Shown one piece after another: positions 2,520 through 54,403 of a DNA stretch of 64,000 nt. This DNA is from an uncultured Saccharofermentans sp. (GTDB lineage Bacteria > Bacillota > Clostridia > Saccharofermentanales > Saccharofermentanaceae): contig CAJOJI010000001.1 of assembly GCA_905234715.1 (NCBI GenBank), forward strand, positions 8,582 through 72,581. Reading direction: 5' to 3'. Below the pieces are notes generated by a model. That model saw only the letters and a program-made list of their open reading frames with translations, did not search any database and was not told where the DNA came from. Positions within the stretch are counted from its first letter, which is position 1. Every line of letters starts with the position of its first letter. Position numbers and translations under genes: made by a program.

Positions 2520-3074
2520 TTACTTGATGTTTTCTCTCCATGTTGCAGGCTTGAATTCGTCTATCAACGGGAGGAGTCTCTTATCAACGTCGATCTTGAA
2601 TACTGCATTGAAGTTGTTTGTTGCGATCATCTGACCTGCAAATCCTACGATGACAACGAGTTCCTGATCGTTAAAGAATTTTCTGAGTTTGTCGAAGAGC
2701 TCATCAGATACTGCAGTAGGATTCTTAACATATTGTTCAGCGAGTTCTGTGAGAACTGTTTCCTTCTCATCGTAAACGAGGTTAGCGGGATCCAAACCCA
2801 AACCCTTTACGTCACTGATGAAGAAGAGTGAGCAGAGCTGGCATGAGTTTGTTGTAGAGATCTTGTGAGCGTAGAGGATCGCATCCTTTTCGCCGATTAC
2901 TTCAACGAGTCTCTTCCAGGATGTGTACCAAGCCATGTATGCATCGTATGTTGCTGCATCGTTAAGAAGTCCCTTCTTCATGTTGGTAACTGCGTTTCTT
3001 CCTGCGAGCTCGTCATAGCGCTCCTTCTCTGCGCCTGTTGCTTCGTTCTGTTCTACCAATTTGATTCTTGCCAT
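2520..3074 (-). CDS. Carboxymuconolactone decarboxylase / AhpD-like protein with CxxC
   Basis: STTNSCQLC resembles the AhpD NxCxxC motif. The C-terminal half resembles CMD helical repeats. Start moved to ATG 3074 (RBS GGAG). Confidence 0.65.
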   Translation of the reverse strand: MARIKLVEQNEATGAEKERYDELAGRNAVTNMKKGLLNDAATYDAYMAWYTSWKRLVEVIGEKDAILYAHKISTTNSCQLCSLFFISDVKGLGLDPANLVYDEKETVLTELAEQYVKNPTAVSDELFDKLRKFFNDQELVVIVGFAGQMIATNNFNAVFKIDVDKRLLPLIDEFKPATWRENIK

Positions 3075-3115
3075 TTTTAGTAATCTCCTTTTTTGCAATT
3101 TAGTCCCGGTATTTT

Positions 3116-4276
3116 TTAAAGTGCGATCTTTAAGATCTCTACTATCTTTTGTGAGTCGAGCGGTTCATAGTGTCCTACGCTGCCGCCCTTTGTTGCGCGC
3201 TGTGCCATAACCTCAAAGTCCTTGTCAGTTATTCCGAGTTCGGACAGATGTGTCTTAAGTCCCAGTTTCTTAAAGAACTTCTCGAGTTCTTCCGATAACA
3301 GAAGCGCGCGTTCTTTTTCTGAATAGTCGTACGGATCCTTGCCGTAGACTCTGCTTGCGAGAAGTGCAAGTCTCCAGGGCTTGATGTCAGCAATGTACTT
3401 AGTCCAAGCTGTGAAGACGATAGCCATTCCTTCTCCGTGTGTGATGTTGTACTGTGCAGAGAGTTCATGCTCGATACGGTGTGATCCCCAGTCTGCCGAT
3501 CTTCCGGCATCAAGGAAATTATTGTGTGCTACTGATGCGAGCCACTGTATCTCTGCTCTTGCGTTGATGTTCGTAGGGTCTTCGATAAGTCTGTCTGCAT
3601 TGACGAGCAATGCTCTTACGGCGCCTTCGATAAGGTAGTCTGTCGTATCTGAATTCTTCTCATCAGAGAAATATCTTTCGAGAAGGTGTGACAACACGTC
3701 TGCGATTCCCACGAAGGTCTGATACGAAGGAAGGTTTACCGTGTACCTGGGGTTCATGATCGCGAACTTTGGGATAATGCGGTCATCTTCAAAACCTTTC
3801 TTCCACTCACCGTATGATAGGATCGCGCAGTTGGACGTCTCGGAACCGCTCGATGCCGTTGTCGCGATGACTCCGATGTTAAGAACGTGTTCGGGAGTAA
3901 CACCTTTATCGAAGAAATCCCAGACATCGCCATCGTACGGTATACCGAGAGCTATCGCTTTGGCGGTGTCGATGGAGCTGCCACCACCGACTGCGAGAAC
4001 GAAGTCAACTTTATCTTCCTTGCCCTTTGCGACAAGCTTTCTGACAAGCTCGATGGACGGATTTGGTACTACTTCACCACTCTCCGAGAACTTGATCCCG
4101 AGTTCCTTTACTGCGTCAGTGATGACGTCGTAAATACCCAGTGTTTTGATGAAGTCTCCGCTGTATACCAATAGGAGTGAACTGACTTTATGTTGCGATA
4201 AAAGAGACTTCAATTTCTTTTCGCTGTCCTCGCCGAAAACTATTTTCGCGGGGTTGTAATACTCAAATCCGATCAT
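3116..4276 (-). CDS. Iron-containing (group III) alcohol dehydrogenase, BdhA/YqhD-like
   Basis: VPNPS, AVGGGSSIDTAKAIA, TTASSGSE, and metal-binding H/D residues (DVLSH, SHRIEHELS, ITHGEG). Confidence 0.9.
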   Translation of the reverse strand: MIGFEYYNPAKIVFGEDSEKKLKSLLSQHKVSSLLLVYSGDFIKTLGIYDVITDAVKELGIKFSESGEVVPNPSIELVRKLVAKGKEDKVDFVLAVGGGSSIDTAKAIALGIPYDGDVWDFFDKGVTPEHVLNIGVIATTASSGSETSNCAILSYGEWKKGFEDDRIIPKFAIMNPRYTVNLPSYQTFVGIADVLSHLLERYFSDEKNSDTTDYLIEGAVRALLVNADRLIEDPTNINARAEIQWLASVAHNNFLDAGRSADWGSHRIEHELSAQYNITHGEGMAIVFTAWTKYIADIKPWRLALLASRVYGKDPYDYSEKERALLLSEELEKFFKKLGLKTHLSELGITDKDFEVMAQRATKGGSVGHYEPLDSQKIVEILKIAL

Positions 4277-5181: not shown

Positions 5182-5246
5182 TTTGGTAATCTCCTTTAGA
5201 TGTGTTTTGTTTAGCTTTTCGCTTTAAGAATGATTTGTTTTGGCAT

Positions 5247-5280
5247 AAAAATGCCCGGTGAGTGATTTATCTCCCGGGCG
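5247..5280 (-). terminator. Attenuator terminator upstream of metQ
   Basis: mRNA GCCCGG-GAG...CUC-A-CCGGGC followed by AUUUUU. It lies between the leader stop and the metQ RBS. Confidence 0.8.
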
Positions 5281-5311
5281 CATGGCATATGTTCAAATGC
5301 AATTTACTGCT

Positions 5312-5437
5312 TTAACATCGATCGTTCTCAAGGCGTGAGGAATGTCTTCTTCCGCCCTGGGCCATATAGCGCACCCGGGAGCCGAGCATTCGACAACACA
5401 TCATCATGTTAGCTGTTGTATTAGTTGTTCTATACAT
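5312..5437 (-). CDS. Leader peptide A, 41 aa: MYRTTNTTANMMMCCRMLGSRVRYMAQGGRRHSSRLENDRC
   Basis: AAAGGAGG RBS 8 nt before ATG 5437, an MMMCCRM codon cluster, and a downstream terminator. Too short for the ORF track. Confidence 0.85.
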   Translation of the reverse strand: MYRTTNTTANMMMCCRMLGSRVRYMAQGGRRHSSRLENDRC

Positions 5438-5468
5438 TTCTCACTCCTCCTTTCGTTGTGATGGCGAT

Positions 5469-5503
5469 ACTTTACTACTCATAACCTACCATGTCAATAG
5501 GTT
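5469..5503 (-). promoter_or_regulatory. Sigma-A promoter (TTGACA-17-TAAAGT) with AACCTA-N9-TAGGTT operator
   Basis: -35 at 5492-5497, -10 at 5469-5474, perfect palindrome arms at 5483-5488 and 5498-5503. Confidence 0.75.
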
Positions 5504-6152: not shown

Positions 6153-6191
6153 CAAAAACAAAAACGGGAATTCTTTTTTAAGAACTCCCGT
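6153..6191 (-). terminator. Attenuator terminator upstream of the ECF S-component gene
   Basis: mRNA ACGGGAGUUCUU-AAAA-AAGAAUUCCCGU (12 bp, one G:U) followed by UUUUGUUUUUG. Confidence 0.85.
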
Positions 6192-6232
6192 ACAGTAACC
6201 ATTTTGCTTTGCGATCTTTATGTCATGGGTAA

Positions 6233-6310
6233 TCAGATCACTCCGGTCATATGCGGGAGGGTGACTAAAGCAGGGCACATGCAGATCATAGTGGCCTGAA
6301 TGCTTTTCAT
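6233..6310 (-). CDS. Leader peptide C, 25 aa: MKSIQATMICMCPALVTLPHMTGVI
   Basis: GGAGGAGGT RBS 7 nt before ATG 6310, an MICMC codon cluster, and a downstream terminator. Confidence 0.75.
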   Translation of the reverse strand: MKSIQATMICMCPALVTLPHMTGVI

Positions 6311-6339
6311 TGTCTTACCTCCTCCGATATGATGCGATA

Positions 6340-6374
6340 AAGTTAACATGTATTACCTATCGTGTCAATGGGTT
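6340..6374 (-). promoter_or_regulatory. Sigma-A promoter (TTGACA-17-TAACTT) with AACCCA-N9-TAGGTA operator variant
   Basis: -35 at 6363-6368, -10 at 6340-6345, palindrome variant at 6354-6374 in the same register as the other three sites. Confidence 0.7.
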
Positions 6375-8252: not shown

Positions 8253-9061
8253 ATTTCGCCCTCACGATTCTTATTTAAATTACTTGCAGGAGTATAACAT
8301 ATAACGCTGTTCTCACTGCTGTATTTCTTTCCTTCCAAGAGGCTGAAAGCGTGCTGCTTTCCGACGCCTCCAAACCATTCGTACGGTTTATCCTCAGCGG
8401 TCTTGCCTTCGCATATCTCCCGGATTCCGTTGCGCATGCATCTGATAAGAGATATATCATCAAAATCCTGTGCATGACCGTGAAGGATGCGGTCAGCCCT
8501 GTCTTCAAGGAACATTATCCTGTCCAGAGCTTTTACGTATTCAGGCAGCGGCGAGCAGCCGTCAAGCTGCATCCAAAGATGGTGATTTATCGCATCACCC
8601 GTAAAGAGGATCCTGTCTTCTCTCAAAAGCAGTACGATGCTTCCGGGTGTATGTCCGGGCAGCTCGAAAACTTCCAATGTCTTTCCTCCGATATCGATTA
8701 CATCGCCTTCATTTATTGCTTTAAAAGGCGGCATCTTCAGACCGTATTTTTCGGTTTCTGTTATGAATTCAGGAAGCTTTGTGAACGATTCAGCAAGTTC
8801 AAAATCCTTGGGATCGAGATACGCCTCATCAAAATAAAGATTGCCGAAAATGTGATCCGGATGTCCGTGCGTGTTTACGACAACGATAGGCTTGTCAGTA
8901 ACTTTCCTTACTGCTTTTTTAAGGTCGTTTAAACCGTTCATCGTGTCGATGACACAGACCTTTTCTTCGCCTATAACAAAATAACCTGAAGCCATGTGTC
9001 CTTCATCCATCAAATAGATATCGGGTGTTAATTGCTTAACAAACAACTCAAGTTTTTCCAT
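8249..9061 (-). CDS. MBL-fold metallo-hydrolase
   Basis: [16 protein letters not shown] and LFTGD motifs. Confidence 0.88.
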
Positions 9062-13047: not shown

Positions 13048-13947
13048 TTACCCCCAAGATTCGATCGCTTCAACAGAGAGATCCACAAGATGTTCGCCTT
13101 CCACTCCGTCCATTGTATGTGTAGCTCCTTCGATAACGAAAAACTGCACATTCGGGAACGCAGCTAATGCAGGCTTGAAGAAATCGGGATCTTCTCCGAA
13201 GCTTCCCTCAGTTCCCGTGAATATGATCACAGGTATCTTGCATGTCTCAAGGATCGGATAGAGGTCTCTGTCTATCAGGACTTCATCTTCGAACCACATG
13301 ATTTCGGGAGCATAAAAACTCGGATCGACAAGTATAAGTCCTTTGATCTCATCCTGCCTGTAGGTTCCCGCGTAGCATACAACGATGCCGCCCATACTGT
13401 GTCCGTACAGATAGATATTCGAAGTATCAACTTCAGGAAGATATTCACATGAATCAATAACGGCGTACAGGTCTTTTATCTGGTCCACAACAAAGTTGCC
13501 CAGAAACGCCGGATCCTCACCTGACTCAGGACGCGTGCCATTCTGACAGAGAAATTCGATTACCGCAAAACCGTGCTCGCTGTAATGCTCGGCTTTATCC
13601 GAATATCTTCCGAGAGGCGCATATAATCCGCTGGTAATTATGATCGTCTTAAAAGGCCCCTGACCCTGGGGAACTGTAAGCCTGGCGTAGATCTCGCCTC
13701 CGTCGCGGTAGAAGATTACTTCCTTCGTTCTGCCTTCACTCTTTGAAACCGCAGGCATTAATATCGAATACTCGATGGGCGGGAATTCTTCCACCTTGAC
13801 CAGTCTTGTCTTGATTGGCTGTCTATCGGCATTTTCATTCATCACTTTACCGGGCTTTACAGGCTGCGGTTTTGAACACGAAGCCAGAAGGCAGGCGGTA
13901 ACTACTATCAATATCAGACACTTTATTCTTGATGATCTTTTTCTCAT
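13048..13947 (-). CDS. Alpha/beta hydrolase lipoprotein
   Basis: Lipobox LASC, nucleophile elbow GHSMGG, C-terminal GATH. Confidence 0.8.
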   Translation of the reverse strand: MRKRSSRIKCLILIVVTACLLASCSKPQPVKPGKVMNENADRQPIKTRLVKVEEFPPIEYSILMPAVSKSEGRTKEVIFYRDGGEIYARLTVPQGQGPFKTIIITSGLYAPLGRYSDKAEHYSEHGFAVIEFLCQNGTRPESGEDPAFLGNFVVDQIKDLYAVIDSCEYLPEVDTSNIYLYGHSMGGIVVCYAGTYRQDEIKGLILVDPSFYAPEIMWFEDEVLIDRDLYPILETCKIPVIIFTGTEGSFGEDPDFFKPALAAFPNVQFFVIEGATHTMDGVEGEHLVDLSVEAIESWG

Positions 13948-15071
13948 TACTTCATGATAACAAGCTCGTAATCACGTGTTCCGATTCCGATCTTCTCTCC
14001 GTGTTCAAGTGTTTCTTCCCACGAAACATTCGGATTGCTGTTGTGCCAGACATCACCGTGATCGTGGAAATGATCACTGTTCATATTATCACCTAACTGG
14101 CTGTTTCTGACAGGCTCGGCCTTCTGGCAGAGATCAACGCACGCCTGGTCCAGAGCAACCGGATCAAATGAAGCGAGCATTCCGATATCAGGAAGGATGG
14201 GCGCATCGTTCTCACCGTGGCAGTCGCAGTTCGGCGAAACATCCGTGATAAGACTTATGTGGAAGTTCGGTCTGCCGCTGATGACAGCTGCCGTATACTC
14301 GGCCATCTTTCTTCCAAGCATCGATGCTGCATCCCAGTTATCGTTTTCGATGGCATCGAATGCGCATGCTCCGATGCAGCGGCCGCATCCCTTACACTTA
14401 TCGGGATCGATCCTCGCTTTGCCGTTCTCGTAGATAAATGCGTCTGAACCGCATTCCTTAGAGCATCTTCTGCACCCTTTGCAGCGTTCGGTGATAACAT
14501 GGGGATGGCCGCTCTGATGTTGCTGCATCTTACCCGCACGGGAACCGCAACCCATGCCGATGTTCTTTATACAGCCGCCGAAGCCGGCCTGCTCATGTCC
14601 TTTGAAATGCGTAAGGGAGATAAAGATATCGGCATCCATTACGGCACGGCCGATGTAAGCTTCCTTGCAGTACTCACCATTGGGAACAGGAACGATTATG
14701 TCGTCAGTTCCTCTAAGTCCGTCAGCGATGATTATCTGGCATCCGGTAGTTATCGTGTTAAAACCGTTGATATTAGCGCAGTCCAGGTGTTCGAGCGCAT
14801 GCTTACGGCTTCCGGGATAAAGCGTATTGCAGTCGGTTAAAAAAGGCATTCCGCCGAGTTCTTTAACAACGTCAGCTACAGCCTTCGCATAATTGGGTCT
14901 TAAATATGCGAGATTTCCAAGTTCGCCGAAATGCATCTTGATCGCAACAAACTTGTTGTCCATATCGATAGACTGGATTCCCGCAAGCCTTATGAGCTTT
15001 TGAAGCTTGGCAGTAAGAGGCGTACCAAGACCCGTACGAAAATCAGTAAAATACACTTTTGATTTATCCAT
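13947..15071 (-). CDS. DUF362 domain protein with two 4Fe-4S ferredoxin motifs
   Basis: VAIKMHFGE, HFKGHE, KNIGMG, and two CxxCxxCxxxC motifs. Confidence 0.85.
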   Translation of the reverse strand: MDKSKVYFTDFRTGLGTPLTAKLQKLIRLAGIQSIDMDNKFVAIKMHFGELGNLAYLRPNYAKAVADVVKELGGMPFLTDCNTLYPGSRKHALEHLDCANINGFNTITTGCQIIIADGLRGTDDIIVPVPNGEYCKEAYIGRAVMDADIFISLTHFKGHEQAGFGGCIKNIGMGCGSRAGKMQQHQSGHPHVITERCKGCRRCSKECGSDAFIYENGKARIDPDKCKGCGRCIGACAFDAIENDNWDAASMLGRKMAEYTAAVISGRPNFHISLITDVSPNCDCHGENDAPILPDIGMLASFDPVALDQACVDLCQKAEPVRNSQLGDNMNSDHFHDHGDVWHNSNPNVSWEETLEHGEKIGIGTRDYELVIMK

Positions 15072-15176
15072 TTAGCACCTCCCGGCAATAATCAGACTAT
15101 CGTTCAGATAGAAAAATTATAGCATTTTGGAGGTGCAAAAATGAATTATATTACGGTCTTATCTGTTCAGTTCCTT

Positions 15177-15830
15177 TTATGTCTTTCTGTGCTTCTTGGA
15201 CATCCAAATACCGATTTCCTGAATGAGCATTACCATGATTATCAGTAATGCAACCGTGGTAAAGAGAACATCTTTCTGGTAGCTGTAATAGCCGTACTGC
15301 AGTGCAATTGCACCGAGTCCGCCACCTCCGATGACGCCTGCCATTGCAGAGTAACCGAGTACGGTTGCAACGTTGATGGCGCCGCCCTGAAGAAGTGAAG
15401 GTGTTGCTTCAGGAATGATGAAATGAAGTATCGTATAAAGAGGTGATGCACCCATTGATGTGGCGGCTTCAATAATTCCCGGCTGTACTTCATTAAGCGA
15501 TGATTCGACCATTCGCGCAACGATCGGGATAGCGCCTATCGTGAGAGGTACGATTGCAGCCGTGGTACCGATGGACTGGCCTACGATAAATCTCGTAAAC
15601 GGGATGAGGAGCACGAGGAGGATCAGGAACGGCAATGACCGAGTGATGTTTACGATGGCTCCGATAATGAAGTTGACGGGCCTGTTCTCGAGCAGACGTC
15701 CTTTTGATGTCGCATAGAGCAGGACGCCCAAAGGCATTCCGACCGCATATGAAAAAAGCGAAGCGAAGAATGTCATTACAAACGTCTCCCAGACACCTGT
15801 TATTATTGCTTCTCTGATGTAATCACTCAT
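15177..15830 (-). CDS. metI: Methionine ABC transporter permease MetI
   Basis: VNITRSLPFLILLV, ARMVESSL, YSAMAGVIGGGGLG. Confidence 0.93.
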   Translation of the reverse strand: MSDYIREAIITGVWETFVMTFFASLFSYAVGMPLGVLLYATSKGRLLENRPVNFIIGAIVNITRSLPFLILLVLLIPFTRFIVGQSIGTTAAIVPLTIGAIPIVARMVESSLNEVQPGIIEAATSMGASPLYTILHFIIPEATPSLLQGGAINVATVLGYSAMAGVIGGGGLGAIALQYGYYSYQKDVLFTTVALLIIMVMLIQEIGIWMSKKHRKT

Positions 15831-16830
15831 ATCTGTTTACCTCCGACACCGACAGGCCGCCCTTTCTGAAAAAGTCGATGACAGTCTTACGGTCCTTTTC
15901 AGATTCAGGCAGTTCGATGATCATCTGACCGTAACCGATGCCGCCGACGCTTCTCGTGTTCGCACTCAGGATGTTTACCTTAAGGCCTGTCTCCTCAACG
16001 AGATTTGCAATGAACGGCACGTTCGACTGTGTGCCGTCGAAAACGATTCTTACAAGCTGTCCGTTCTCATCAGAAGGATCGAAAGGATTGCTCGGGAATA
16101 CGAGTTTTTTCGCTGCTTTCGACCGGGGATTTGAAAAGACTTCCTTAACATCGCCTATCTCTGCAAGAGTACCGTCATCTATAATGGCAACACGGTCGCA
16201 GATCTTTTCCACAACACTCATCTCGTGCGTAATTATGACGATCGTCAGTTTTCTTTCTTCGTTGATCTTCTTCAAAAGATCCAGTATCTCGCCCGTTATC
16301 TTCGGATCAAGAGCGCTCGTTGCCTCATCGCACAAAAGCACTTTCGGATCTACTGCAAGCGCTCTTGCTATGGCAACTCTCTGCTTCTGACCGCCCGAAA
16401 GACGTGCGGGATATTCATTTGCCTTCTCAAGAAGACCAACGATCTCAAGCATCTGTTTTGCCTTTTCGCGTCTGATATTGCGCGGTGTTCCGATGATCTT
16501 CAAAGACTGCTCAACGTTCTGGATAACAGTGCGCTGGTTGATAAGATTGAAGCCCTGGAAGATCATGGAGATCGAATGTCTTACTTCTCGAAGTTCTTTG
16601 GGCTTAAGTGCAGCAAGATCATCTCCGTAGAAATTAACCGTACCCGAGCTGACTTCCTCAAGTCTGTTCAGCGTTCGTACAAGTGTTGATTTGCCTGCAC
16701 CGCTCATGCCGATTATGCCGAATATCTCACCTTCATTTATGGTAAGACTTACATCCTTGAGCGCAGTGAATTCCTTGCCGTCGTTCTTATAAGTCTTGTA
16801 TACGTTTTTTAATTCATATACGTTTTCCAT
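15823..16830 (-). CDS. metN: Methionine ABC transporter ATP-binding protein MetN
   Basis: GMSGAGKST, LSGGQKQRV, LCDEATSALDP, C-terminal NIL domain. Confidence 0.93.
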   Translation of the reverse strand: MENVYELKNVYKTYKNDGKEFTALKDVSLTINEGEIFGIIGMSGAGKSTLVRTLNRLEEVSSGTVNFYGDDLAALKPKELREVRHSISMIFQGFNLINQRTVIQNVEQSLKIIGTPRNIRREKAKQMLEIVGLLEKANEYPARLSGGQKQRVAIARALAVDPKVLLCDEATSALDPKITGEILDLLKKINEERKLTIVIITHEMSVVEKICDRVAIIDDGTLAEIGDVKEVFSNPRSKAAKKLVFPSNPFDPSDENGQLVRIVFDGTQSNVPFIANLVEETGLKVNILSANTRSVGGIGYGQMIIELPESEKDRKTVIDFFRKGGLSVSEVNRYE

Positions 16831-17745
16831 TTAATCGAATAATCCTTTGCTTAAATATCTGTCTCCTCTGTCAGGGAAAACAGTTACTATGTTTCCTTCA
16901 TCAATTTCTTCCGCAAGCTTAAGTGCTGCCGCAAGTGCCGCACCTGATGAAGAACCGGCAAGAATGCCTTCGTGCTTTGCGAGTTCTCTTGAAGCATTGA
17001 ATGCTTCATCGTCATTGATCTTTATGACCTTATCAACAAGCGTGATATCCATCGTATCTGCTATAAAGTCGTTGCCGATACCTTCGATGTTGTAATCGAA
17101 ATGTTCTCCTCCGCCGATCGTTGAACCGTAAGGATCTGCAAGAACTCCGACGATATCCGGGTTTTGCTCCTTGAGATACTTAACGACTCCGGAGAATGTT
17201 CCGCCGCTTCCTGCGCCTGCTACAAAGTAATTGATATTACCGTCAAGCTGTGAATAGATTTCAGGTCCTGTTGTCTCATAGTGAGCAAGAGGGTTAGCGG
17301 GATTTCTGAACTGTCTTAATGAAACAGAACCTGGAATGGTCTTAAGTATTTCTTCGGCTTTCTGCTCTGCTCCGAGCATTCCGCCTTCTCTTGATGTGTG
17401 AACGATTTCGGCACCCAATGCCTTCATGACTTTCTGCTTCTCGACTGAGAACTTTTCAGGCACCGTGAATATTACTCTGTATCCCTGGTTAAGCGCTGCA
17501 ACTGCGATTCCGATACCGGTATTGCCCGCTGTGGCATCAACGATCGTTCCGCCTTCTTTAAGTATTCCTCTCTTTCTTGCGTCATCGATCATGTAAACGC
17601 CTACACGGTCTTTTACGCTTCCTGCGGGGTTCATAAGTTCAAGTTTTGCATAGATATTTACTCCGGGCTTAATGCCCATATGGGAGATCTTAAGGATCGG
17701 AGTATTACCGATCATCTGTCTTACATTTTCATATACGTTATTCAT
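16831..17745 (-). CDS. mccA: PLP-dependent cysteine synthase family, MccA-like (O-acetylserine-dependent cystathionine beta-synthase)
   Basis: NPAGSVKDR, TAGNTGIG, FSVEKQ and GAGSGGTF; adjacent to an mccB-like gene. Confidence 0.75.
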   Translation of the reverse strand: MNNVYENVRQMIGNTPILKISHMGIKPGVNIYAKLELMNPAGSVKDRVGVYMIDDARKRGILKEGGTIVDATAGNTGIGIAVAALNQGYRVIFTVPEKFSVEKQKVMKALGAEIVHTSREGGMLGAEQKAEEILKTIPGSVSLRQFRNPANPLAHYETTGPEIYSQLDGNINYFVAGAGSGGTFSGVVKYLKEQNPDIVGVLADPYGSTIGGGEHFDYNIEGIGNDFIADTMDITLVDKVIKINDDEAFNASRELAKHEGILAGSSSGAALAAALKLAEEIDEGNIVTVFPDRGDRYLSKGLFD

Positions 17746-17755
17746 TTCATTTACC

Positions 17756-18910
17756 TCACGCCTTAACGGAATTCTCGATTGCCTGCTTCAGATCTGCGAT
17801 CAGATCATCAACATCTTCAATGCCTACTGAAAGTCTGATGAGTTCATCAACGATTCCTACTTCTTTTCTGATGTCAGCAGGGATTGCTGCATGTGTCATC
17901 GTTGCAGGATGGCATACGAGTGATTCAACGCCGCCCAAACTTTCTGCAAGAGTAATGAGCTGAAGCTTCTCGAAAAACAACTTGTAATCGTACTTGTCGT
18001 TAAGAACAAATGAGATCATTGCGCCGGCACCGTCAGCCTGCTTTTTCTGGATCTCATAACCCGGATCAGTCTTAAGACCGGGATAGTAAACCTTGCTTAC
18101 ATAACCGCTGTCCACGAGCCACTCAGCAACCTTCTGCGCATTCGCAACATGTCTGTCCATACGGACACCTAAAGTCTTGATACCTCTTATGATGAGGAAG
18201 CTGTCCCAGGGTGCAAGCACTCCGCCGATTGCATTCTGCAGATAGTAAAGTCTGTCCGCAAGCTGCTTGTCGTTTACTACCACGAAGCCTGAAATCGTAT
18301 CAGAGTGACCGCCGAGATATTTTGTTCCGCTGTGGATTACGATGTCTGCACCGAGCGTCAAAGGTCTCTGAAGATAAGGTGTAAGGAATGTGTTGTCTAC
18401 GATAACGAGCTTGTCGTGCTTCTTGCCGATCTTGGATACCGCTTCGATATCAGTGATCGTGAGAAGCGGGTTTGCAGGTGTCTCGATATAGATTGCTTTT
18501 ACATCATCGTCGATCGCATTTTCGACAGCTTCAAGATCGGATGTATCAACGATCTTGTATGTGATATTGAAGTTCTTGAAAACGTTGTCGAGGATACGGA
18601 ACGTACCACCGTAAATGTTATCCGAAACGATGAGCTTATCGCCTGATTTAAAGAGCGAGAGAACCGTGTTGATGGCAGCAAGTCCTGATGCGAATGCAAG
18701 ACCGTACTGTCCTTCTTCGAGATCTGCAATGAGCTTCTCGAGTGCTGCTCTGGTGGGGTTGCCAGTTCTCGAATATTCCCAACCTCTGTTTTTGCCTAGA
18801 CCGTCCTGCTTATATGTAGATGTCTGGTATACGGGAATGTTTACCGCACCTGTTGTCTCGTCTCCGTCAATACCGCCGTGTATAAGTAAAGAATTTCTTT
18901 TGTAACTCAT
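17756..18910 (-). CDS. mccB: Cystathionine gamma-lyase, MccB-like (Cys/Met metabolism PLP family)
   Basis: PVYQTSTY, EYSRTGNPTR, HSGTKYLGGHSD, LAESLGGVESL. Confidence 0.75.
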   Translation of the reverse strand: MSYKRNSLLIHGGIDGDETTGAVNIPVYQTSTYKQDGLGKNRGWEYSRTGNPTRAALEKLIADLEEGQYGLAFASGLAAINTVLSLFKSGDKLIVSDNIYGGTFRILDNVFKNFNITYKIVDTSDLEAVENAIDDDVKAIYIETPANPLLTITDIEAVSKIGKKHDKLVIVDNTFLTPYLQRPLTLGADIVIHSGTKYLGGHSDTISGFVVVNDKQLADRLYYLQNAIGGVLAPWDSFLIIRGIKTLGVRMDRHVANAQKVAEWLVDSGYVSKVYYPGLKTDPGYEIQKKQADGAGAMISFVLNDKYDYKLFFEKLQLITLAESLGGVESLVCHPATMTHAAIPADIRKEVGIVDELIRLSVGIEDVDDLIADLKQAIENSVKA

Positions 18911-18936: not shown

Positions 18937-18972
18937 AAAAATTAAGCCCGGGATGAGCGATCTTCCCGGGCT
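18937..18972 (-). terminator. Attenuator terminator upstream of mccB
   Basis: mRNA AGCCCGGGA-(10-nt loop)-UCCCGGGCU followed by UAAUUUUU. Confidence 0.85.
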
Positions 18973-18999
18973 GTTGGTGGTTGATGTTTTATATTGAAG

Positions 19000-19098
19000 T
19001 CAACATCGCACATCGTCAAGGCGCATGTTCATGCAGTCAAACGCCAAGGCCGATTCAGCCCCTGGAATATGCATTCGACAACACATGATCATTAACAT
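19000..19098 (-). CDS. Leader peptide B, 32 aa: MLMIMCCRMHIPGAESALAFDCMNMRLDDVRC
   Basis: GGAGG RBS 8 nt before ATG 19098. Shares MxMCCRM and RLxxxRC-stop with leader A. Confidence 0.87.
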   Translation of the reverse strand: MLMIMCCRMHIPGAESALAFDCMNMRLDDVRC

Positions 19099-19138
19099 TT
19101 CGTTCGCCTCCGTTTTTGGTTTTCTATGGCATGCACAC

Positions 19139-19172
19139 ATTATGCCACATAAACCTACCTTGTCAATAGGTT
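19139..19172 (-). promoter_or_regulatory. Sigma-A promoter (TTGACA-16-TGnCATAAT) with AACCTA-N9-TAGGTT operator
   Basis: -35 at 19161-19166, -10 at 19139-19144, perfect palindrome at 19152-19172, immediately after the iscU stop. Confidence 0.75.
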
Positions 19173-19179
19173 ATTCAGA

Positions 19180-19560
19180 TTATTTTTCTTCCTGCCTGGA
19201 TTCATAGTCCTTGAGAGCAGCTTCAATTGCTTCCTGTGCAAGGACTGAACAGTGCATCTTATAGTCAGGCAGACCGTCCAAAGCTTCTGCAACTGCTTTG
19301 TTTGTAAGCTGTCTTGCTTCCTCAACGGGCTTGCCCTTGATGAGTTCAGTTGCCATTGAGCTTGATGCAATTGCGCTTCCGCATCCGAATGTCTCGAACT
19401 TAACATCCTTTACGATGTCATCTTCGATCTTGAGATACATCTTCATGATGTCTCCGCACTTAGCGTTACCTACTGTGCCTACACCGTTTGCGTCTTCAAG
19501 AACGCCTACGTTTCTCGGATTTCTGAAATGATCCATTACTTTCTCACTATATAAAGCCAT
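19180..19560 (-). CDS. iscU: Fe-S cluster scaffold IscU/NifU
   Basis: YSEKVMDHFRNPRNVG, CGD, FGCGSAIAS, KMHCS. Confidence 0.95.
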   Translation of the reverse strand: MALYSEKVMDHFRNPRNVGVLEDANGVGTVGNAKCGDIMKMYLKIEDDIVKDVKFETFGCGSAIASSSMATELIKGKPVEEARQLTNKAVAEALDGLPDYKMHCSVLAQEAIEAALKDYESRQEEK

Positions 19561-20790: not shown

Positions 20791-20825
20791 ATCATAATTC
20801 GTTTAACCCACCAAGTCAATAGGTT
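20791..20825 (-). promoter_or_regulatory. iscS promoter (TTGACT-17-TATGAT) with AACCTA-N9-TGGGTT operator variant
   Basis: -35 at 20814-20819, -10 at 20791-20796, palindrome at 20805-20825. Confidence 0.75.
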
Positions 20826-54207: not shown

Positions 54208-54233
54208 GACAATCCCTCCTTTAAGATTGATGA

Positions 54234-54345
54234 GCAAAGAACGGACAACCCGGAGGGGCAGGTTACTTACCCTGTATAACAGGACGGCCGGGCTACCTAC
54301 CGGCTCTGGCATATCTTACGGTATGCGTTGCGTTTTTATCTTTGC
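54234..54345 (-). ncRNA. yjdF (azaaromatic-sensing) riboswitch
   Basis: GCAAAGA/UUCUUUGC closing stem, CCGGUAGGUAGCCCGG and AGUAACCUGCCCCUCCGGGUUGUCC motifs, directly upstream of the yjdF RBS. Confidence 0.9.
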
Positions 54346-54403
54346 ATGTTACGGGATAATTATATCACCTGTGATATCTGTAAAAACATCACAGAGAAAC
54401 ACT

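Follow-up and report, generated by a model that had tools for sequence, protein, structure and literature searches.

Amino-acid operons are classically controlled by leader-peptide attenuators of the E. coli trp and Salmonella his type, and in Bacillota the sensing of tRNA usually falls to T-boxes. Here we describe Leader B, a candidate cysteine (Cys) leader on the minus strand of a 64,000-nucleotide (nt) stretch of DNA from an uncultured Saccharofermentans sp. (GenBank assembly GCA_905234715.1, contig CAJOJI010000001.1, positions 8,582 to 72,581), where it lies between nifU and a mccB-mccA-metN-metI operon. This whole stretch is called the window below, and coordinates refer to it unless a locus is named. 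Leader B is, with good confidence, a ribosome-mediated transcription attenuator that senses charged tRNA-Cys. Its mechanism would be textbook; what is new is a cysteine leader for these rumen bacteria, for which we found no published description.

Firmicutes are regarded as having few leader peptides (PMC2965389), and a Cys-specific T-box is described upstream of ubiG-mccB-mccA in Clostridium perfringens, C. botulinum and C. acetobutylicum (PMC2940859). Mycobacterial polycysteine small open reading frames (sORFs) are leaderless and act by translational control through sequestration of the Shine–Dalgarno (SD) sequence (bioRxiv 10.1101/834739), while no terminator could be recognized in the cys/cbs leaders that were predicted for Actinobacteria in 2005 (PMC1262725). 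In Rhodobacterales, cysS is preceded by the uORFC-8-2 motif, in which a predicted upstream open reading frame (uORF) contains a pair of tandem Cys codons and leads to the stem of a terminator and a run of U (PMC8632094). In the literature, Cys leaders were found described only for Actinobacteria and for cysS of Rhodobacterales, and no poly-Cys leaders before mccB, metQ or O-acetylhomoserine (OAH) sulfhydrylase genes in Clostridia or Fibrobacter.

Compared with the trp and his attenuators, Leader B has the same mutually exclusive anti-antiterminator, antiterminator and terminator helices and the same intrinsic terminator placed before biosynthetic genes, but it would sense cysteine, its host belongs to the rumen Clostridia (Bacillota), and a conserved promoter operator is added. 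Moreover, its open reading frame (ORF) continues for about 55 nt beyond the antiterminator arm, so that the arm would be sequestered by a hairpin re-forming behind the ribosome and not by a ribosome parked at the stop codon. With the Clostridium Cys T-box Leader B shares the pathway (methionine (Met) to cysteine, MccA/MccB), the tRNA-Cys charging signal and the terminator/antiterminator output; the T-box, however, binds uncharged tRNA directly and is untranslated, whereas Leader B appears to be a translated poly-Cys ORF. As in the mycobacterial and actinobacterial leaders, an upstream sORF with consecutive Cys codons would make Cys-related operons responsive to cysteine, yet Leader B is SD-led and carries a canonical intrinsic terminator. 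Finally, uORFC-8-2 resembles Leader B in its tandem pair of Cys codons within a uORF and in the terminator stem and U run that come next, but it is found in Alphaproteobacteria, before cysS only, with its Cys codons at about positions 14–15 inside the first stem; in gene context and phylum, the two aspects compared, there is no resemblance.

Organization of Leader B

The features claimed for Leader B in the original prediction, which named the upstream genes iscS and iscU, were all confirmed at their coordinates on the minus strand. The order of elements is nifS (20763–19573), nifU (19560–19180), promoter, SD sequence, 32-codon ORF, terminator and a mccB-like gene with its start codon at 18910. 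In detail, all on the minus strand, these are:

19153–19171: palindromic operator-like motif ACCTATTGACAAGGTAGGT, overlapping the −35 hexamer
19139–19166: sigma-70-type promoter (TTGACA, 16 nt, TG-n-CATAAT), matching at 11 of 12 positions and with an extended −10
19107–19111: SD sequence GGAGG, 8 nt ahead of the leader ATG at 19098
19000–19098: Leader ORF B, MLMIMCCRMHIPGAESALAFDCMNMRLDDVRC, 32 codons plus UGA, with orthologous ORFs in loci L007, L014, L102, L177 and L197
19078–19083: putative regulatory codons UGU UGU (Cys6 and Cys7), codons 6–7 of the leader ORF
19071–19079: 5′ strand GUCGAAUGC of P1, the predicted anti-antiterminator hairpin, in the stretch that a ribosome would cover when stalled at Cys6 or Cys7
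19056–19067: arm a, UUCCAGGGGCUG, 5′ strand of the predicted antiterminator, lying in P1 with its core held in an upper hairpin with CGGCCUUGG (19052–19044)
19036–19044: 3′ strand GCGUUUGAC of the P1 lower stem (A-F-D codons), from folding
18963–18973: CAGCCCGGGAA, 3′ strand of the antiterminator and also the terminator 5′ arm (duplex −17.0 kcal/mol, family covariation)
18937–18972: intrinsic terminator with a 9-bp GC-rich stem, a 10-nt loop and the U tract UAAUUUUU, predicted at −18.9 to −19.5 kcal/mol

The promoter occupies the 48-nt gap between the nifU stop codon (19180) and Leader B, and transcription is predicted to start near 19131. The 32-amino acid (aa) ORF with CC at codons 6–7 that had been called at 19098–19000 is indeed present and SD-led, and its peptide holds 4 Cys in 32 residues. 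The terminator is built from AGCCCGGGA (18972–18964), the 10-nt loop, UCCCGGGCU (18953–18945) and UAAUUUUU (18944–18937); a simple terminator scan overlooked it because its loop is longer than 8 nt. The proposed pairing of the arm at 19067–19056 with the 5′ side of the terminator also forms: UUCCAGGGGCUG and CAGCCCGGGAA give 4 bp, a 2×1 internal loop and 6 bp, at −17.0 kcal/mol. The claim stands for the window in full and for the nearest relatives in its core GGGCUG:CAGCCC, the one part kept there.

Recurrence of poly-Cys leaders

We searched the 330 nt before 77 mccB relatives, one genome per species, for leader ORFs, taken as SD-led ORFs of 6–70 codons containing CC. Such ORFs precede 26/77 relatives, against 1 in the reverse complements and a mean of 0.8 in dinucleotide shuffles; three Cys within four codons occur in 23 versus 0.2, and Cys is the sole amino acid with enriched triplets in these regions. 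As the chance rate of such ORFs is far below that observed, the feature seen in Leader B is more than chance. Poly-Cys ORFs recur in relatives of the window organism (Oscillospiraceae) and in Lachnospiraceae, with MCCRM, MCCCM, CCCC, CCCCC and CCCCCC, and in Fibrobacter with CCC and CCCC, the Fibrobacter peptides being otherwise unrelated to the clostridial ones. The runs comprise 2–6 Cys codons with UGU and UGC mixed and interchangeable, and a hairpin with a U tract follows nearly all of these ORFs at a distance of 12–45 nt.

The family was further sampled by scanning metagenomes with the pattern ATGTGTTGTCGAATG-N78-108-GCCCGG, which returned at least 120 loci, nearly all from rumen or gut samples; two high-GC soil matches (L092 and L134) were judged to be chance and left out together with L108. 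Counts for this family, here and below, are among the matches listed. The first gene downstream is an OAH/O-acetylserine (OAS) sulfhydrylase gene (TIGR01326) in at least 41 cases, metQ in at least 28, mccB in at least 7 and mccA in at least 2, with at least 29 other genes that include those for cystine-type binding proteins, permeases and a PepT-like peptidase; at least 16 leaders have no ORF within reach. All downstream targets that could be identified import or make sulfur amino acids.

Covariation of the antiterminator and P1

In the family the antiterminator consists of the S-R-A codons (UCCCGGGCN) as the 5′ strand, pairing with UGCCCGGGAG, which is also the terminator 5′ arm, and of a second helix between AUGGCY (M-A codons) and RGCCAU immediately 5′ of the terminator. 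The gapless alignment A1, which comprises 61 distinct sequences, served to assess covariation. The search pattern had fixed GCCCGG on the 3′ side only, leaving the 5′ antiterminator arm free. Antiterminator cells are paired in 84.5% of cases, compared to 21–46% with the partner slid by 1–3 columns, and ten antiterminator pairs changed on both sides; double-sided changes amount to 58 cells against 28.9 ± 4.4 in shuffles, with 0/500 shuffles reaching 58. Compensatory changes are present in 6/6 pairs of the second helix. For 24 leaders of all types, the mean energy of the arm:terminator duplex is −14.8 kcal/mol for cognate and −11.0 kcal/mol for non-cognate pairs (permutation p < 1e-4). Between the Cys codons and arm a there are zero indels in the 61 sequences; in Leader B arm a begins 13 nt past the first base of the Cys7 codon, which corresponds to the leading edge of a stalled ribosome.

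Directly after the Cys codons, GUCGAAUGC pairs with GCGUUCGAC (A-F-D codons) as the base of P1, enclosing and partly pairing arm a, and P1 cells are paired in 69% of cases in the family versus 34–44% when slid. The partial conservation of the leader peptides follows from these RNA pairings, antiterminator and P1 alike. Leader B itself belongs to a sub-branch (L007, L014, L102, L176, L177 and L197) in which the second antiterminator helix is absent. Every member of this sub-branch keeps P1, in which an upper hairpin holding GGGCU sits on a lower stem of 9 bp, at −14 to −18 kcal/mol, and the antiterminator core GGGCUG:CAGCCC at −13 to −20 kcal/mol, with a G:C to U:A change in the core in L014. 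These values come from duplex and hairpin calculations per sequence, used because a MAFFT alignment of the eight closest leaders had shifted one sequence by one column at the terminator arm. In L002, with an identical MccB, an M9K change (AUG to AAG) weakens the P1 lower stem from −17.6 to −13.7 kcal/mol.

Predicted fold switch and proposed mechanism

The equilibrium fold of the complete leader is always the terminator, ribosome mask or not, and is therefore uninformative; we thus folded the nascent transcript, with RNA up to the terminator loop and before the terminator 3′ arm. With no ribosome, or with a ribosome at the stop codon, nascent Leader B is predicted to form P1 with a free terminator arm (−44.2 kcal/mol). 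Once positions −15 to +13 around an A site occupied by Cys6 or Cys7 are masked, the antiterminator is part of the minimum-energy fold (−36 kcal/mol), and the expected number of antiterminator base pairs rises from 0.36 to 8.6. The switch holds for masks ending at +10 to +17 when Cys6 is in the A site and at +10 to +14 for Cys7.

In the mechanism we propose, RNA polymerase would start from the promoter at 19166–19139 and a ribosome would load on the 32-codon ORF. With Cys-tRNA plentiful, the ribosome would pass codons 6–7 and P1, made up of the lower stem GUCGAAUGC:GCGUUUGAC and the upper hairpin holding GGGCU, would form behind it and sequester arm a; with arm a locked, the terminator (18972–18945) and its U tract would form and transcription would end before mccB. 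With Cys-tRNA scarce, the ribosome would stall while its A site holds the Cys6 or Cys7 codon; its footprint would then cover the P1 5′ strand and end just short of arm a. Arm a, thus freed, would pair with the terminator 5′ arm to give the antiterminator, and RNA polymerase would continue into mccB-mccA-metN-metI. A second, independent layer would be a DNA-binding regulator acting on the palindromic motif over the −35 hexamer; such a layer at the promoter is likely, with the motif probably bound by a regulator of this kind.

Taken together, Leader B has an SD-led short ORF, tandem conserved Cys codons and an intrinsic terminator, all marks of a leader-peptide attenuator, and adds to these a covarying antiterminator, a fold shift upon ribosome stalling (from constraint folding, a model) and downstream genes that would supply the sensed amino acid. 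The original prediction of a Cys leader controlling the terminator before mccB-mccA-metN-metI has thereby gained strong comparative and folding support, and the core leader-peptide/terminator reading appears strongly supported by both lines. Translation of the leader ORF, stalling and Cys-dependent readthrough are what we infer from it.

Several observations weigh against this reading. Leader B has just two Cys codons in its run, compared to up to six in relatives, and the UUCC:GGAA extension of the arm pairing is not conserved but specific to the window strain. P1 covariation is mostly one-sided, because the search pattern fixed the P1 5′ strand. The antiterminator no longer forms at the largest assumed footprint (+15 or more from Cys7), and several relatives, Leader A (see below) among them, are already in the antiterminator form in the free nascent equilibrium fold, so that the decision there would be kinetic or set by ribosome occupancy. 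The attenuator model does not account for a conserved Cys codon directly beside the stop codon. Finally, assembled rumen metatranscriptome contigs cover leader, terminator and mccB, but terminated and readthrough RNA are inseparable in them and DNA carry-over is possible.

Shared operator-like motif and the possible link to nifS-nifU

Four sites in the window match the 19-bp palindromic motif ACCTATTGACAnnGTAGGT lying over the −35 hexamer, where 0.07 would be expected. All are on the minus strand, at 20806–20824 (nifS), 19153–19171 (Leader B), 6355–6373 (Leader C) and 5484–5502 (Leader A), and the consensus ACCTAY-N7-RTAGGT is common to nifS and the Cys leaders. The site outside the leaders is:

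20806–20824, minus strand: operator-like motif ACCTATTGACTTGGTGGGT on the nifS-nifU promoter, with no leader after it

Across the family, the core CCTAY-N7-RTAGG lies 70–150 nt (mostly 80–110 nt) 5′ of the Cys codons in 71/118 leaders. The palindrome is probably the operator of a cysteine/iron–sulfur (Fe–S) regulator. In C. perfringens, iscSU together with an Rrf2 regulator is induced by cysteine depletion (PMC2940859), on which ground an Rrf2-type regulator acting on the motif is a reasonable guess; no Rrf2-type regulator was found among ten window ORFs of 150–170 aa.

The genomic association of the leaders with nifSU is real and well above chance. The nifU gene lies directly 5′ of 6/80 mccB relatives in the genome set, the closest relatives only (L007 and L009–L013), and of 14/103 family leaders, divided by downstream gene into 2/6 for MccB, 8/35 for OAH sulfhydrylase, 4/37 for others and 0/23 for MetQ. 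Leaders of the Leader B type also stand before metQ and many other genes without nifU nearby, and the attenuator is not dependent on nifU. In the nifU–leader gap of L002 (about 2260–2330), a 40-nt insertion with an inverted repeat is found between nifU and the leader promoter.

Alternative explanations

The original prediction had further held that one attenuator couples Cys supply to Fe–S and thiolation demand, there being no terminator between the iscU-like gene and the leader. Nothing terminator-like was found between the nifU stop at 19180 and the leader, so that transcripts from the nifS promoter could enter the attenuator and readthrough from nifU is possible. This could mean that the attenuator serves mainly as the conditional end of the nifS-nifU transcript, an account that would add to, and not replace, sensing of tRNA-Cys charging, and that we consider unlikely. 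Its further support is the presence of nifU before 14/103 leaders, far above chance and including the 8/35 OAH sulfhydrylase cases, along with contigs, labelled metatranscriptomic but from two runs of uncertain RNA status, that reach 28–44 nt 5′ of the predicted start. Those contigs, however, end short of nifU, are possibly DNA-derived and show neither usable transcript ends nor a clear nifU junction. Moreover, the leader has a near-consensus promoter of its own, placed between it and nifU, and nifU is absent 5′ of most family members and of all 23 metQ leaders with sufficient upstream sequence. Of the coupling claim, therefore, the association with nifSU and the absence of an intervening terminator stand, whereas the leader's own promoter and the general lack of nifU upstream speak against it. 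The operator shared with the nifS promoter is a simpler account of co-regulation and the better candidate for a link between Fe–S assembly and Cys supply than gating of readthrough.

That operator could in turn be the sole control, with the hairpin being a constitutive leaky terminator or an RNA-stability element. The fixed position of the motif in 71/118 leaders and its occurrence at nifS without a leader fit this idea, but it leaves the enrichment of Cys codons, the covarying antiterminator and the constant distance between the Cys codons and arm a unexplained, and 47/118 leaders keep the leader without a strict motif; we regard it as very unlikely. Equally unlikely is a ligand-, tRNA- or protein-binding RNA switch with an incidental ORF. 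It could draw on the block AUGUGUUGUCGAAUGC, which is conserved at the nucleotide level between Leaders A and B and common to at least 120 loci found by searching for it, and on the fact that some peptide conservation (SRA, MAG, AFD) is due to RNA pairing. Yet the leader has no match in Rfam even at E ≤ 10, the nucleotides conserved after the Cys codons are explained by the P1 stem, and ORF, SD sequence and Cys run persist in unrelated nucleotide sequence (Lachnospiraceae, Fibrobacter) with synonymous UGU and UGC. The known switches also failed as candidates for Leader B: neither a T-box (RF00230; no match at the gathering threshold or at E ≤ 10, with the same Rfam library finding the Clostridium T-boxes) nor an S-adenosylmethionine (SAM, S-box) riboswitch (RF00162; no Rfam match) was detected, and no relevant Rfam family was found in the whole window at the gathering threshold or in the leader at E ≤ 10. 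A leaderless polycysteine sORF of the mycobacterial type was likewise rejected, as the predicted 5′ untranslated region of about 33 nt contains an SD sequence and a terminator follows; the Cys-proximal RNA of Leader B pairs inside the leader, and the mccB SD sequence lies outside the structure. A functional Cys-rich micropeptide, for example one binding metal or a precursor of a peptide that is made by ribosomes and then altered post-translationally (a RiPP), would fit the 4 Cys in 32 residues and the C-terminal R-C kept in many relatives, but is extremely improbable: outside the Cys run no residue is conserved across lineages, conserved residues sit on RNA helices, and what comes after the ORF is always a terminator with sulfur-amino-acid genes beyond it, with no maturation genes nearby. 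Attenuation by a translating ribosome thus remains the preferred reading of Leader B.

Apparent sensor swap and wider implications

In four Clostridium loci (L027, L030, L049 and L059) Rfam T-boxes lie about 0.9–1.1 kb 5′ of mccB, in line with the control of ubiG-mccBA by a Cys T-box in the literature (PMC2940859). With T-boxes there and none in Leader B, the rumen lineages appear to use a different sensor for the same operon, and the comparison documents what looks like the exchange of one sensor, a T-box, for another, a translated leader, on mccB operons that are orthologous. In L027 the features lie at 2840–3091 (plus strand) and 8673–8793 (minus strand), with an antisense SAM riboswitch of C. 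ljungdahlii downstream of the mccB region; this pairing of T-box and antisense SAM riboswitch matches what has been reported of the ubiG operon in C. acetobutylicum.

Few amino acids are known to be sensed by leader-peptide attenuation, and the leaders described here would add a well-supported cysteine-specific case for Bacillota and Fibrobacterota. In the annotation of uncultured rumen bacteria, a cysteine regulon could be recognized by three elements in combination: a poly-Cys ORF led by an SD sequence, an arm of the CCCGGG type and a terminator. Its genes serve the uptake of Met, reverse transsulfuration, the OAH/OAS sulfhydrylase reaction and the transport of cystine, and the operator motif points to a candidate regulator linking sulfur-amino-acid genes with Fe–S cluster assembly. 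A broader scenario, which we offer as a tentative speculation and doubt in this full form, is that rumen and gut Clostridia, and independently Fibrobacter, replaced the Cys T-box by widespread poly-Cys attenuators stacked on a nifS-nifU-controlling operator, the attenuator doubling as conditional end of the Fe–S operon where nifSU directly adjoins the leader and nothing terminator-like separates them. If true, Cys-tRNA charging would decide whether Fe–S transcripts reach cysteine-salvage genes.

Downstream operon, related leaders and neighbouring genes

The genes downstream of Leader B are:

15177–18910, minus strand: mccB-like cystathionine gamma-lyase gene, mccA/cysK-like gene for a pyridoxal phosphate (PLP) enzyme, metN and metI (assigned with NCBIfam; genes abut or overlap)

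NCBIfam gives family-level support for a clostridial-type NifS and NifU, for MetN and MetI and for a CysK/MccA-family PLP enzyme, and at the same level identifies the mccB-like product as cystathionine gamma-lyase/homocysteine desulfhydrase-like. Both PLP enzymes score slightly under the NCBIfam equivalog cut-offs, and their exact activities are presumed; together, the four products would serve to take up methionine and to convert it into cysteine. The closest genome is a rumen metagenome-assembled genome (MAG) labelled Oscillospiraceae bacterium SIG422, with 97% MccB identity, followed by Saccharofermentans and Mageeibacillus MAGs. A gene for a DUF362/4Fe-4S protein (13947–15176, minus strand) follows metI by 105 nt with no predicted terminator between, an arrangement kept in L001–L004, and it may be in the same transcript as metI.

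Two further leaders of the family are present in the window:

5244–5502, minus strand: Leader A, with operator, ORF at 5437–5312 (MYRTTNTTANMMMCCRM, ending in DRC) and terminator, preceding metQ (5181–4300)
6153–6373, minus strand: Leader C, with operator, ORF at 6310–6233 (MKSIQATMICMCPALVTLPHMTGVI) and terminator, preceding an energy-coupling factor (ECF) S-component gene (6122–5559)

The Leader A ORF has 41 codons, with MMMCCRM in its run and DRC before the stop, a promoter/operator of the same type as that of Leader B, and a covarying antiterminator formed by CUCCCGGGUGCGC:GCGCCCGGGAG and AUGGCC:GCCAU. The metQ gene that follows is the binding-protein gene missing from the metNI operon, which lies 10 kb away under Leader B. 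Leader C has a 25-codon ORF with C-M-C, an arm CUCCCG complementary to the terminator sequence beginning ACGGGAG, a U tract and the operator variant ACCCATTGACACGATAGGT. The gene that follows it encodes an ECF-type S component (PF07155/TIGR04002), the substrate of which is possibly a sulfur compound.

Most family leaders end in R-C or R-C-C before the stop codon (CGAUGUUGA; in the window at 19003–19005), within a small hairpin across the stop codon, and the short-type leaders (L008–L013) have AUUCGAU, a partner of GUCGAAU, just before the R-C end. The L012 locus (about 3780–4000), from a Mageeibacillus sp. MAG, lacks the promoter and that portion of the leader which carries the Cys codons, and the nifU frame appears to continue into a remnant containing CGAUGUUAC, with a terminator-like hairpin still present before mccB; this looks like a natural deletion variant. 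The Fibrobacter MAGs (L031, L035, L036, L042, L044, L047 and L050) have short poly-Cys leaders before mccB, for example MTQNLMNICCCCWGRCRTGD, with a conserved terminator of their own (beginning UCCCGCUCGG) and an antiterminator arm inside the ORF end, a layout resembling that of trp; an origin separate from that of the clostridial family is probable. Unrelated to Leader B, an azaaromatic (yjdF) riboswitch aptamer is found at 54225–54349 on the minus strand, scoring 73.2 bits against a gathering score of 45.

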